Made by a program: the position numbers and the translations under genes. Below the pieces are notes generated by a model. The model did not search any database, was not told the origin of the DNA, and was given only the letters and a program-made list of their open reading frames with translations. Positions 3,048-63,950 of a stretch of DNA of 64,000 nt are shown here, piece by piece. Numbering within the stretch: position 1 is the first letter of the stretch; each line of letters opens with the position of its first letter. The stretch comes from an uncultured Gammaproteobacteria bacterium (GTDB taxonomy: Bacteria > Patescibacteriota > Microgenomatia > Levybacterales > GWA1-39-11): assembly GCA_964651815.1 (NCBI GenBank), contig CAZYWG010000010.1, positions 1,377 through 65,376 of the forward strand, given 5' to 3'.

Positions 3048-4208
3048 TTAAATTCTTTTTTTAGTTTTGATGTTCATAAATATAAAAATAGAAATGATTG
3101 CGCAAACAACGGCAAAATAAAAAGTTGCAGCAGGCGCAACAAATGACCAAAGAAGCCCTCCAATCACAGACGCGGCGAGCGTAAAAATACTAGTCACCGT
3201 ATTTAAAACGCCATACGCTATCCCTGCACGCTCCTTATCAATGAGCGAACCAACCATAGCTTTTGAAACGCCGTCAGTTAGCGCAATATAAAATCCATAA
3301 ATTCCAAATAAAGGCCACATAAGAAGCCCGTTTGTATCAAGTGCAAACCCCAGGTAAACTAGCGCAAAGATCACGATTCCCGCAATGAAAACTTTTTTAG
3401 TCCCAATTTTGTCTGATATTATTCCCGCAGGAGTAGAAGCCGCAGCGTAGACAATGTTGTAAACAATATAAGCAGAAATTACTAAAATCAAACTAAGACC
3501 TAAGGACTTTGCCCTGAGAATCAAAAAACTGTCAGAGCTATTGCCAAGTGAAAAAATAACAAGCCCCAGAAGAAAAAGACGCAATTCTCCAGGAAAACTT
3601 TTGAATGATAACGCAAATTTGGTTTTAGTTGTAATAATTTTCTTCCGGGTCTCCTTTACCCAGATGAAAAAAATAAGGCTTAAAAAAGCAGGGATTGTGG
3701 CAATGTATAAAATCAAACGAATATTGTTATGGAATATATACAAAAGCAAAAGTGCAATTGTTGGCCCAACCACAGCTCCCGCTGTATCCATTGACCTATG
3801 AAATCCAAAAATCAAACCTTTATTATTCTCTTCTGTCGCATCAAGTAGCAACGCGTCGCGCGCGCCAGTCCTGGCACCCTTCCCCATCCTGTCAACAATT
3901 CTGCCAATTAAAACAATGGGCCAACTGTAAGACGCGGCTATAATCAATTTAGATACAGCACTCCCTCCGTATCCTGCAATCACAAACGGCTTTCTTTTCT
4001 GCAATCTGTCAGACCAATAACCAAAAGCTGTTTTAAATAATGACGCGCCTCCTTCTGCAACTCCTTCAATAATTCCCACAACAAAAACCGGCGCCCCAAG
4101 GACTTGAGTCAGAAATATTGGCATAACCGGATAAAGCATTTCAGACGCAGTGTCATTGAGGAAGGAAACGAGGCTCAAAAGCCAAACTACCTTAGGAATT
4201 TTCTTCAT
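3048..4208 (-). CDS. MFS transporter
   Basis: About 12 hydrophobic helices. MFS-like loop motif GRIVDRMGKGARTGARDAL between TM2–3. Confidence 0.65.
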   Translation of the reverse strand: MKKIPKVVWLLSLVSFLNDTASEMLYPVMPIFLTQVLGAPVFVVGIIEGVAEGGASLFKTAFGYWSDRLQKRKPFVIAGYGGSAVSKLIIAASYSWPIVLIGRIVDRMGKGARTGARDALLLDATEENNKGLIFGFHRSMDTAGAVVGPTIALLLLYIFHNNIRLILYIATIPAFLSLIFFIWVKETRKKIITTKTKFALSFKSFPGELRLFLLGLVIFSLGNSSDSFLILRAKSLGLSLILVISAYIVYNIVYAAASTPAGIISDKIGTKKVFIAGIVIFALVYLGFALDTNGLLMWPLFGIYGFYIALTDGVSKAMVGSLIDKERAGIAYGVLNTVTSIFTLAASVIGGLLWSFVAPAATFYFAVVCAIISIFIFMNIKTKKRI

Positions 4209-62753: not shown

Positions 62754-62769
62754 ATTAAAATCCATCAAA

Positions 62770-63065
62770 TATTTGAGGCGCGGAAGGGAATCCCTTCACT
62801 TCGCTTCGCGCAGGGTAAACGAACCCTCGCATAAAAGTTTTGTCCTAGAAATTGCAGATGTTTTAATTGAGACACGGAAGGGAATCGGACCCTCGCATAG
62901 AGGTTTTGCAGACCCCCGCGTTACCACTTCGCCACCGTGTCAAAAACATCTTGCAATTTCAGGATCCCGTACATCTAAGTTAATTTTATCAAAATTAACA
63001 AGATGGTACTGGGACAGACTCCCGCGTTACCACACTTTCAGTGCCACCGCGCCATACAGGAATTC
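62770..63065 (-). repeat. Cluster of degenerate tRNA-derived fragments around the tRNA-Cys-like gene. A 5'-half-like copy (63020–63060) and a 3'-half-like copy (62776–62835) have complementary outer acceptor arms GGCGCGG/CCGCGCC.
   Basis: CCCGCGTTACCAC occurs twice on the plus strand; so does ACCCTCGCATA(R)AG(G)TTTTG; so does CGGAAGGGAATC. Confidence 0.45.
62869..62940 (-). tRNA. tRNA-Cys(GCA)-like gene (possibly pseudo). Cloverleaf has U73 discriminator, anticodon loop CUGCAAA, and GG in the D-loop, but C instead of U at position 55 of the T-loop.
   Basis: Hand-folded on the minus strand: GACACGG|TG|GCG-AAGTGGTAA-CGC|G|GGGGT-CTGCAAA-ACCTC|TATGC|GAGGG-TCCGATT-CCCTT|CCGTGTC|T. Confidence 0.45.
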
Positions 63066-63174
63066 AGAAATTGAAGATTCAGAATTACCACCGAACCCGC
63101 AATAGAACTCAGTTTAACACAAATCGAGCCTAAAAGCGATTGAAAATAGGAACATATTTTGAATGTGATGAGAC

Positions 63175-63693
63175 TTATTTACCTTGTGCAGTAAAGCTTA
63201 TCTCAGCAAGAGGATGAAATACTTGTGATGGAGTAAATTGCCAATAATAAAGGGTTGCTACGCAATTCGCTGCGCCATTGTGCCAAAGCCAAACAGATGT
63301 TGTGCCGCCAAGAAAGGTTTGATCTGCAGGGCCCGCCTCGCCGTATACTACAGGATCTGTTTGTGTTTGTGTCACTCCATTACCATCAACATAAGTAAAA
63401 GGTACGGGTTGAGTACAAATTACCTGTATTCTAGGAGCCTTCACTGTTTTTGGGTATGTAGTTGTGAATGTTAAATAATCTCCGAGTTTGGGGTTGGCGT
63501 TATTTAATACTATTGTGCCTGTTCCCATGGTATTTACGGTCTTATTTCCTGCAGCGTCACTTGGTGTTTGTTTTGATGTATCTTTAAGCTTATTTGGAAG
63601 AGAAACAATAGCATAAAATGCAATCAATAGAGCAATAAGGGTAATTCCTACCAAAACAAAGTCTTTCTGTGAGGATGCTGATTTTGAAGCCAT
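63175..63693 (-). CDS. Membrane-anchored secreted protein, unknown function
   Basis: N-terminal anchor VLVGITLIALLIAFYAIV, then a Thr/Gly-rich beta-type domain. Confidence 0.4.
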   Translation of the reverse strand: MASKSASSQKDFVLVGITLIALLIAFYAIVSLPNKLKDTSKQTPSDAAGNKTVNTMGTGTIVLNNANPKLGDYLTFTTTYPKTVKAPRIQVICTQPVPFTYVDGNGVTQTQTDPVVYGEAGPADQTFLGGTTSVWLWHNGAANCVATLYYWQFTPSQVFHPLAEISFTAQGK

Positions 63694-63765
63694 AATTTAT
63701 TCTTGCACAGCAATTCACTTCTTGTCAATAGTTATTAAAATACAAATATTGAGGTAAATTGCCAC

Positions 63766-63794
63766 AAAAAATCCCGCGCTCGGCGGGATTTTTC
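63766..63794 (-). terminator. Bidirectional intrinsic terminator AAAAATCCCGC-gctcg-GCGGGATTTTT, about 160 nt downstream of the 16S 3' end
   Basis: Perfect 7-bp GC-rich stem flanked by A5 and T5. Confidence 0.65.
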
Positions 63795-63950
63795 ATAAAG
63801 CTGTTAATTTTTTAGCAACTCTGATAGTGGTAGGAATGGTTTAGCCTCTCCTGCTCTTTCGAACAATCGAGAGGGCTCCATTCCTTTTGTACTAAAAGGT
63901 CCGAGAGCAACGGAAATTTACGCCTAAACTAATGTCTAGGTTTAAATTAG

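Follow-up and report, generated by a model that had tools for sequence, protein, structure and literature searches.

Why does an intact tRNA-Cys gene lie between the two halves of another tRNA-Cys gene? The question was raised by a short region on the minus strand of a 64,000-nt stretch of contig CAZYWG010000010.1 (GenBank assembly GCA_964651815.1; the whole stretch is called here the window, and its numbering is used throughout), in which the original prediction had described a tRNA-Cys-like gene among degenerate tRNA half-copies and had taken these for the footprint of repeated integration and excision. The host is a bacterium, as the 3' end of its 16S gene fits the bacterial model, and its relatives belong to the candidate phyla radiation (CPR). 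We found that the resident tRNA-Cys gene (the outer gene) is split between positions 34 and 35 (G34^C35, where the caret marks a junction) by a cassette that has no open reading frame (ORF), consists of two hairpin arms, and carries a foreign-type tRNA-Cys gene (the inner or cargo gene). The same arrangement, which we call a nest, recurs in two phyla, there is an allele in which the site is empty, and most of the outer copies are decayed.

Two tRNA genes were found by ARAGORN in the window, one of them a tRNA-Cys(GCA) on the minus strand, and the Rfam tRNA model RF00005 matched this gene over its full length (model positions 1 to 71) with 58.9 bits, well above the gathering score of 29, so that the condition under which the prediction would have failed, namely no tRNA model above threshold, did not hold. 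The inner gene had been predicted at 62869 to 62940 with anticodon GCA, discriminator U73, and C55, and all of these features were recovered, although it starts at 62870 and not at 62869. The GCA anticodon and U73 are identity elements for cysteinyl-tRNA synthetase. The T-loop reads TCCGATT, hence the C at position 55. Given that six canonical tRNA-Cys genes of related species have C55 too, we rejected this base as the mark of a pseudogene and regard it as a variant of the lineage that implies no defect. The inner gene is presumed to be the functional tRNA-Cys. It differs from the outer and canonical gene at 8 of 72 positions, including paired changes in the acceptor stem (GACACGG/CCGTGTC) and at 29-41, and its first 34 nt are 1 nt off the cargo of another nest, that of the Levybacteria relative L054, where only 34 nt are available.

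The identity of the flanking pieces was established by aligning them to the canonical tRNA-Cys (GGCGCGGTGGCGAAGTGGTAACGCGGGAGTCTGCAAAACTTTTATGCGAGGGTTCGATTCCCTTCCGCGCCT), found verbatim in six species-level genomes (L005, L006, L007, L009, L012, and L024), and by comparison with the orthologous region of related genomes, two of the checks that had been proposed at the outset. Once joined and freed of three insertions (6 bases in the D-arm, 172 bp between G34 and C35, and 28 bp in the T-loop), the outer halves were identical to the canonical gene at 72/72 positions in a pairwise alignment. Both half-copies are therefore real, with a match far better than chance would give, and calling them diverged was wrong, since they are exact apart from the indels; the expected complementarity of their acceptor strands (GGCGCGG and CCGCGCC) is perfect. 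In the relative L052, an intact tRNA-Cys gene stands at the same place, in the order 16S 3' end, terminator, promoter, 56-nt leader, tRNA-Cys, and a homolog of the window's 122-aa ORF, and the order at the window locus is likewise 16S, promoter, tRNA-Cys, and p122. The 72/72 match, together with the position behind the orthologous promoter, identifies the half-copies as the lineage's own tRNA-Cys gene, split by the insert.

The promoter in question is a motif, (G)CTCAAATTTTGNTAAACT, that is located 10 to 36 nt upstream of canonical tRNA-Cys genes in related genomes. Its counterpart in the window (GGCTCGATTTGTGTTAAACT) aligns with the promoter region ahead of the intact tRNA-Cys gene of L052 and is a putative promoter of the split gene; as a generic sigma-70 consensus scan flagged nothing in the nest region, the assignment rests on the lineage-specific motif. 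The leader that follows has a counterpart of 56 nt, also with a hairpin, at the same place in L052, and the leader of L054 ends in the same bases as that of the window (CTGTAT^GGCGCGG). Between the promoter motif and the terminator-like hairpin of the 16S gene (63761-63796), the window has a 172-aa ORF without family match (63175-63693, minus strand), where L052 has no gene. Another ORF, of 110 aa with a TTG start (62773-63105, plus strand), spans the whole nest and is treated as spurious because it is antisense to three tRNA-derived segments.

Rejoining the outer exons of the window did not yield an intact cloverleaf. With only the anticodon insert removed, ARAGORN found no tRNA in the outer gene, and after removal of the T-loop insert as well it found one only in a shifted register with a mismatched acceptor stem. 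The D-arm lesion needs at least two separate indels, so that a single splicing event could not restore this arm. In the minimum free energy (MFE) fold, the T-loop insert pairs with both strands of the T-stem and divides the T-arm into two hairpins.

The insert lies exactly at the centre of a TGCA palindrome formed by U33 and the GCA anticodon. The canonical gene is continuous at this site (...GTCTG^CAAAAC...), while the window reads ...GTCTG^TCCC...GGA^CAAAAC..., without any target-site duplication in comparison with the uninterrupted GTCTGCAAAAC. The two arms stand side by side on feet of the form TCCC...GGGA and TCCY...RGGA, meeting in the window at CGGGA^TCCTG. Arm 2 brackets the inner tRNA, which stands at the arm tip in the orientation of the host gene, and arm 1 is homologous to arm 1 of the outer-level insert of another Levybacteria nest, L020 (...ATCTT[hairpin]TTAGATGTGCGGGA). 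Neither the palindrome of arm 1 nor arm 2 has a further copy within the 64-kb window. The 291-nt region folds with -112 kcal/mol (z = -5.6; 0 of 200 shuffles were as stable), and the three nest folds computed, each comprising the outer acceptor stem, the arms, and the inner cloverleaf, gave z scores of -5.6, -8.9, and -5.35. In the Sungbacteria nest L038 (-140.8 kcal/mol, z = -8.9), the fold consists of an outer cloverleaf frame with three hairpins in its D-loop, the two arms, and the inner cloverleaf on arm 1. Compensatory changes preserve the pairing of arm 1 among five Sungbacteria elements: both bases have changed in 5 of its 16 pairs, and 95% of the cells are paired. Rfam searches of the window region (E ≤ 10) and of four nests (E ≤ 1) returned tRNA matches only. 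Complementarity of leader and trailer was considered as a general trait of tRNA-Cys genes in this lineage and rejected, with values of -3 to -25 kcal/mol at canonical loci versus -44 kcal/mol at the L020 nest.

Two further likenesses were seen around the arms. The tip of arm 1 (62979-62999) is a palindrome, TTAATTTTGATAAAATTAA, containing TGATAAAAT, which is similar to the tRNA-Cys promoter motif of the lineage (TTTTGATAAACT); by this resemblance the cassette may bring its own promoter, and the sigma-70 scan did not flag the motif. A stretch of the leader (63059-63078) is similar over 13 nt (92%) to the 3' strand of arm 2 and complementary to the 5' strand, which could be due to chance or could be a relic of an older arm.

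Is the nest in the window a single accident? The search for similar loci combined a T-arm pattern scan of one genome per species, which provided 22 tRNA-Cys loci (mostly from Levybacteria or unnamed Patescibacteria bins), and a metagenome scan, both with exon patterns of the Levybacteria type. The metagenome scan with the right-junction pattern contributed L025 (equal to L030), while three of its five matches (L027 to L029) were dismissed as chance matches; the other Sungbacteria nests came from walking RbfA homologs. Altogether, nine further insertions were found in six other loci of Levybacteria and Sungbacteria, making ten with that in the window. All ten have the G34^C35 site, the termini TCCC...GGGA(A), two arms, and a tRNA-Cys cargo on the same strand, and among all loci examined the junction motifs were found only at nests. 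The inserts range from 163 to 172 bp, of which about 100 nt is hairpin sequence unrelated to tRNA, and the arm bearing the cargo comes first or second depending on the nest. In L020, a small TCCC...GGGA hairpin also sits at the tip of another arm. The target site is also present in the cargo, which is thus open to a further insertion, and nests accordingly reach three levels, in the manner of Russian dolls. The cargo types do not follow a hierarchy: GGCTGGA is the outer type in L038 and the innermost in L030, and GGCTAGG is inner in L038 and outer in L040. All Sungbacteria nests lie in the order rbfA, tRNA-Cys, tRNA-Leu, with the tRNA-Leu gene 20 to 130 nt downstream of the nest and no obvious promoter motif seen in between, which makes read-through plausible.

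Acceptor stems of tRNA-Cys are, in general, unusually variable among these close relatives (L003-L024 and L030-L054), always with compensatory pairs; the variants were GGCGCGG, GACACGG, GGCACGG, GATCCGG, GGTCCGG, GGCGCAA, GGCTGGA, GGCTAGG, GGCTGGG, GGCGCAG, and GGCCACG.

The Sungbacteria nest L030 offered a direct comparison of filled and empty sites. The contig L035 shares with it the rbfA gene, the level-A half, and the level-A arm at 100% identity, and yet its level-B tRNA-Cys gene is uninterrupted. The filled (L030-L034) and empty (L035, one 538-nt contig) alleles thus differ by a precise junction with identical flanks and no target duplication. As for the state of the genes, the innermost copy was intact in every nest (56 to 66 bits), while most outer copies were damaged, and damage tended to rise with depth. 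The D-stem 3' strand of the L030 level-B outer copy has been lost, with a two-hairpin module in its place; the entire outer 5' half of L040 has been deleted, the promoter now adjoining a decayed arm; the L042 outer copy has stem mismatches; the T-arm of the outermost copy of L020 is decayed beyond recognition; and the outer copy of L054 is also among those with disabling lesions or deletions. Insertions aside, L038 still has intact outer exons and L020 an intact middle copy.

The nests were reproduced across records. The window nest was 100% identical in the independent assemblies SRR9179562 and SRR9179563 (two Logan runs), that of L030 was found in five assemblies, and those of L038, L040, and L042 were each found in at least two records. 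Many contigs start or end inside a nest (starts in L020 and L054, ends in L025/L030 and in L031-L035), so nests seem to break short-read assemblies. All features are listed in Table 1.

Table 1. Features of the nested tRNA-Cys locus of the window, in the order of reading, and the nests of other genomes (MAG, metagenome-assembled genome)
Feature	Position	Strand	Description	Basis
Promoter-like motif of resident tRNA-Cys	63111-63130	-	GGCTCGATTTGTGTTAAACT; extended -10 type, TGnTAAACT	Match to (G)CTCAAATTTTGNTAAACT
Leader between promoter motif and outer 5' half	63054-63110	-	57 nt, with hairpin	Sequence
Outer tRNA-Cys, 5' half	63015-63053	-	GGCGCGGTGGCACTGAAAGTGTGGTAACGCGGGAGTCTG; positions 1-34, last base G34	Canonical alignment
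D-arm lesion	63034-63042	-	ACT and AGT on either side of GAA; mini-palindrome (C)ACTGAAAGT(G)	Canonical alignment
Insert	62843-63014	-	172 bp, no ORF, between G34 and C35 of outer gene; starts TCCC, ends AGGA	
Arm 1	62965-63014	-	Plain 50-nt hairpin TCCCAGTACCATCTT[GTTAATTTTGATAAAATTAAC]TTAGATGTACGGGA	MFE fold
Arm 2, 5' strand	62943-62964	-	TCCTGAAATTGCAAGATGTTTT; pairs with 62843-62864, 20 bp, two bulges	
Inner tRNA-Cys(GCA)	62870-62941	-	Intact, U73	ARAGORN (62869-62941) and Rfam RF00005
Arm 2, 3' strand	62843-62864	-	AAAACATCTGCAATTTCTAGGA; after 5-nt spacer CAATT at 62865-62869	
Outer tRNA-Cys, 3' half	62776-62842	-	CAAAACTTTTATGCGAGGGTTCG[28 nt]ATTCCCTTCCGCGCCT; positions 35-73, first base C35	Canonical alignment
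T-loop insert of outer copy	62792-62819	-	28 nt, TTTACCCTGCGCGAAGCGAAGTGAAGGG	Canonical alignment
Outer junction as it would read if rejoined			GGGAGTCTG^CAAAACTTTT; outer-specific bases A29/T41/T43	
L020, Levybacteria MAG			Three levels: intact inner copy; middle copy interrupted at G34^C35 by TCCCAGTAAA...CTGGGA; decayed 3' half of the outermost copy, following ...GCGGGA^CAAAAC	
L054, Levybacteria relative			Nest; cargo 1 nt off that of the window over the 34 nt available	
L025 = L030, Sungbacteria			Three levels	
L038/39, Sungbacteria			Nest	
L040/41, Sungbacteria			Nest with outer 5' half deleted	
L042/43, Sungbacteria			Nest	

Apart from the anticodon inserts, the tRNA-Cys genes of these genomes carry other rearrangements. 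Homologous modules of two or three hairpins (including GGGAAAT...ATTTCCC) lie in the D-loop of outer copies of three sequence types (at about 1300-1377 in L030, 2061-2150 in L038, and 2399-2487 in L042) and are absent from the empty-site allele L035. Seven of the 22 canonical loci (L007, L008, L011, L013, L018, L021, and L023) have a duplicate of the 5' fragment 35 to 50 nt upstream of the intact gene, consisting of GGCGCGGTGGC(GAAGTG), a fold-back copy CACTTCGCC, and a leader repeat, all between promoter and gene; the fold-back is of the form GCGAAGTG...CACTTCGC, and the duplicates look like template switching at the D hairpin or a nest at the level of the D-loop. In the level-B outer gene of L030 (1326-1495), a hairpin-rich insert of about 120 nt is flanked by a 20-nt direct repeat of the tRNA 3' end, CGAATCCCTCCTGCGCCTCC, starting in the T-loop, and this insert is att-like, unlike those in the anticodon loop. 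Downstream of rbfA in L026 (4109-4390), there is a tRNA-Cys-like gene whose anticodon is ACA, and behind it a stretch of about 136 nt is duplicated in tandem, starting in the T-loop and repeating the tRNA 3' end. Finally, the tRNA-Phe(GAA) gene of the Sungbacteria MAG L038, the same genome that has a nest, contains a group I intron (RF00028, 61.2 bits; 3772-4006, minus strand).

What, then, produced the nests? tRNA genes are classic integration targets, in the window partial tRNA copies flank an intact gene, and the repeats of L030 and L026 suggest that att-like events may also occur at these genes, all of which fits the proposal that the half-copies are att-site remnants of integrase activity. 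However, the att sites made by an integrase are direct repeats of one and the same 3' segment, and the pieces in the window are non-overlapping halves (1-34 and 35-73) in the nested order 5', 5', 3', 3'; there are no direct repeats at the insert borders, and a repeat search showed only the homology between inner and outer gene. The 172-bp insert has no ORF, and the five nearest ORFs belong to the S8 peptidase, Big_7, or beta-helix families or have no match, and none matches an integrase family. We therefore give the att reading hardly any credence; the idea of an insertion footprint at a tRNA gene holds as a gene split by an insert and fails as tandem partial duplications. It is also very improbable that the whole nest is one functional long structured RNA built on a tRNA-like scaffold, or an assembly artefact. 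The very stable folds, the covariation of the arms, and the many contigs that break inside nests would suit one or the other, but outer parts decay or go missing in several lineages, an allele without the inner nest exists, and identical nests come from independent assemblies and sources. A more substantial proposal, although still an improbable one, does without any mobile element and has nests made in situ by replication template switching or fold-back at tRNA hairpins, followed by divergence. Lesions that make palindromes are indeed common here, as in the ACT-GAA-AGT change of the D-loop and the T-loop insert of the window, which holds an inverted copy of the T-stem, and in the upstream fold-backs of the seven canonical loci with duplicated leader and 5' fragment. 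Against this, the inner gene was not copied from the outer one, from which it differs at eight positions, several of them paired, while the outer gene has no substitution with respect to other species; the cargo resembles that of L054; nests with outer genes of different types have homologous arms, and the termini are the same in two phyla; and the filled/empty polymorphism involves an unrelated cargo type.

The inserts might also be true introns, with the outer tRNA-Cys restored by RNA splicing (self-splicing or protein-dependent) and both tRNAs made, which would be, if protein-dependent, the first such tRNA splicing known in Bacteria. The group I intron of cyanobacterial tRNA-Leu(UAA) lies between positions 34 and 35, precisely the site used here; the outer exons match at 72/72 positions in the window and show no damage at all in L038 or in L020's middle copy; the nest folds as a decorated cloverleaf; and the D- and T-loop inserts recall archaeal multi-intron tRNAs. 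In spite of this, we consider the intron proposal a poor prospect, with no better chances than in situ formation. The Rfam scan found neither the group I family nor any other ribozyme in the window region or the four nests, and the same scan detected RF00028 in the tRNA-Phe of L038, a positive control. The splice points either face each other in a continuous helix (U33-A36, G34-C35, U-A, C-G...) or lie at the foot of two arms, whereas the bulge-helix-bulge (BHB) motif consists of two 3-nt bulges with the splice sites, separated by a 4-bp helix; neither 3-nt bulges nor a BHB was found by inspection or in the MFE folds. In addition, the D-arm of the window would need two or more separate excisions, the L030 level-B copy has its D-stem 3' strand replaced, the outer 5' half of L040 is gone, the stems of L042 are mismatched, and an intron has no need of a spare copy of the same tRNA. 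A dispersed miniature inverted-repeat transposable element was rejected, as the arms have no further copy in the window, the junction motifs were found at nests alone among the loci examined, and there is no target-site duplication. The most credible of these rivals, unlikely as it is, would be a non-autonomous DNA transposon or hairpin element moved without flanking homology by a trans-acting site-specific enzyme (IS200/IS605-like, for instance, or of an unknown class). The identity of site and termini in two CPR phyla, the lack of target-site duplication next to a constant left flank T[C/G]TG with each arm as a terminal hairpin, the small hairpin at another arm's tip in L020, the variable order of the arms as if these were separate units, and the host-specific middle exon in three nests, which fits simple co-conversion poorly, are all in its favour. 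Yet no transposase family (no TnpA) appeared in the ORFs checked near nests, of which only the neighbours of the window were scanned against Pfam and those of L020 and L025 were listed and partly scanned. Moreover, the arms have no second copy in the window, the junction motifs are confined to nests among the loci examined, the hairpins start at the very termini, unlike the ends of IS200/IS605 elements, and the cargo is oriented alike in 10 of 10 events, which could, however, be due to selection for expression.

The account that we favour, with moderate confidence, is that the locus holds a self-targeting cassette for tRNA-Cys replacement, which is transcribed from the host promoter and spreads through homology-dependent gene conversion. 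The cassette would break an essential gene and replace it in one step. The whole nest would be transcribed from the resident promoter, in Sungbacteria probably on into tRNA-Leu, and the strong arms would let the inner cloverleaf fold apart from the homologous outer halves. RNase P and a 3'-end nuclease would free the inner tRNA, which would receive CCA and act as the tRNA-Cys of the cell, while the outer halves would be waste that is left to decay. As for its spread, we propose, with moderate confidence and less firmly than the rest of the account, a homing-like conversion templated by a donor nest, in which the flanking tRNA halves would serve as homology arms and a double-strand break in the target gene would be the probable trigger. 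Three observations speak for gene conversion: the differences between L030 and L035 affect both the D-loop and the anticodon loop at once, homologous D modules occur in outer copies of three tRNA types, and in L042 a cargo of the GGCGCAG type sits in arms whose trailer, CAGCCAGAAT, complements a GGCTG-type 5' end, so that cargo appears to have been swapped within conserved arms.

A candidate for the nuclease, and only that, was found next to tRNA-Cys genes of related CPR bacteria. Between rbfA and tRNA-Cys, L036 (2942-3682) encodes a 246-aa protein of the LAGLIDADG_3 family (E = 1.9e-10; about 1,300 homologs), and all three further members looked up, with 57 to 64% identity, stand at the same place (L045, 1501-2268; L046, 1501-2226; L047/48, 1501-2241). 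All four contexts examined read rbfA, LAGLIDADG_3 homing endonuclease, tRNA-Cys, tRNA-Leu, and in three of the four the last codons and stop of the endonuclease gene (GGC CAC GTG GTG AAG TAG) are the first 18 nt of tRNA-Cys, the stop falling inside the D-loop.

Several points weigh against the conversion account. The LAGLIDADG gene was absent by tblastn from the window and from all Levybacteria loci examined and never occurred inside a nest, and no nuclease, recombinase, or reverse transcriptase was linked to the nests. Recombination would have to work with short homology arms, of about 35 nt. The outer exons of the window have zero substitutions beside their three indels, which is odd for plain neutral decay. 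The empty-site allele depends on the single contig L035; a chimera is unlikely there because the assembly used k = 141 and the intact stretch is 52 nt, so that the joining k-mers must span unique upstream sequence. Transcription from the resident promoter and release by RNase P/Z are predictions from sequence. Lastly, the conservation of the TCCC/GGGA termini and of the site over two phyla could equally mean a dedicated site-specific enzyme, which is a serious alternative given that the middle exon, between D module and anticodon insert, is host-specific. A tentative extension of this idea, which may hold but which we would not put first, is that the nests represent a new class of selfish element, ORF-less hairpin-armed tRNA-Cys cassettes that insert at G34^C35 by a dedicated mechanism and kill and replace the resident gene, serially across CPR phyla. 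The insertion might be made by a structure-specific DNA enzyme, or by RNA-level cleavage and ligation at tRNA loops with subsequent reverse transcription. Scans of viral contigs for the element centre and both cargo types found nothing.

How do the nests compare with what is known? A full-text search of the published literature turned up neither nested tRNA genes nor bacterial tRNA genes with inserts other than those of group I, and the nested arrangement differs from each of its closest known systems in a defining feature. The group I introns of bacterial tRNA genes share with it the anticodon-loop site at 34/35, a patchy distribution, the lack of target-site duplication, and, in some cases, an association with homing endonucleases; the nest insert differs in having no group I core, about 100 nt of non-tRNA sequence, and a complete tRNA, and the decay of the host exons implies that it is not spliced. 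Phages and integrative and conjugative elements also target tRNA genes, whose function is preserved because the incoming DNA brings a replacement for the part that it disrupts. These elements, however, are kilobases long, depend on an integrase, and duplicate only the 3' segment, in the form of att direct repeats, as opposed to a whole tRNA on a 163- to 172-bp ORF-less insert in the anticodon.

Endonuclease homing, including its intron-less and collaborative forms by free-standing endonucleases (seg and mob genes of T4, cyanophage psbA), shares with the nests precise presence/absence alleles that lack a target duplication, apparent flanking co-conversion, and insertion at a palindrome centre, and a free-standing LAGLIDADG family is tightly linked to tRNA-Cys in the relatives. 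In contrast, no endonuclease gene lies in or beside any nest, and the element carries its own target and nests recursively. The intervening sequences of rRNA genes, removed by RNase III without religation, and the rRNA insertions of CPR bacteria are similar as hairpin insertions at loop tips that are probably cut from the transcript and left unligated; an unligated cut in the anticodon loop destroys a tRNA, though, and here the cargo gene rescues the function. Nested transposons, such as the long terminal repeat retrotransposon nests of plants, show the same Russian-doll pattern, in which each copy is a new target and the outer copies are older and more decayed, but the nest unit is a 72-nt essential gene with about 100 nt of hairpins and not a coding transposon. 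Disrupted tRNA genes of archaea and eukaryotes comprise genes with BHB introns at noncanonical positions, multi-intron, split, and permuted genes, and a C/D-box small RNA is found inside the intron of a tRNA-Trp. They too have inserts in the D-, anticodon, and T-loops, which may encode a functional RNA, and long helices of leader and trailer that bracket parts of the tRNA. The nests differ in that they are bacterial, have no BHB at the junctions, have a pseudogene as their outer gene, and encode in the insert the same tRNA species as the interrupted gene. Reviews of disrupted tRNA genes are available (PMC4090602 and PMC4390854).

There are practical consequences for the annotation of these genomes. 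At such loci tRNA finders report the inner gene only, gene callers produce spurious antisense ORFs (62773-63105 in the window), and the breaks of assemblies in nests mean that CPR bins may be fragmented or misannotated at tRNA-Cys. If the replacement reading is correct, an element of 170 bp, whose only gene is a spare copy of its target, could serially overwrite an essential single-copy gene. The precise use of a palindrome centre without duplication in two phyla would mean either that an enzyme acting on tRNA genes or tRNAs has gone unrecognised or that homing is unusually efficient, and both would be of interest for mobile DNA, for the evolution of tRNAs (the origin of anticodon-loop introns and split tRNAs), and for genome engineering. 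Each nest would then be a dated stack of past tRNA-Cys genes, that is, a fossil record of horizontal transfer in uncultured organisms.

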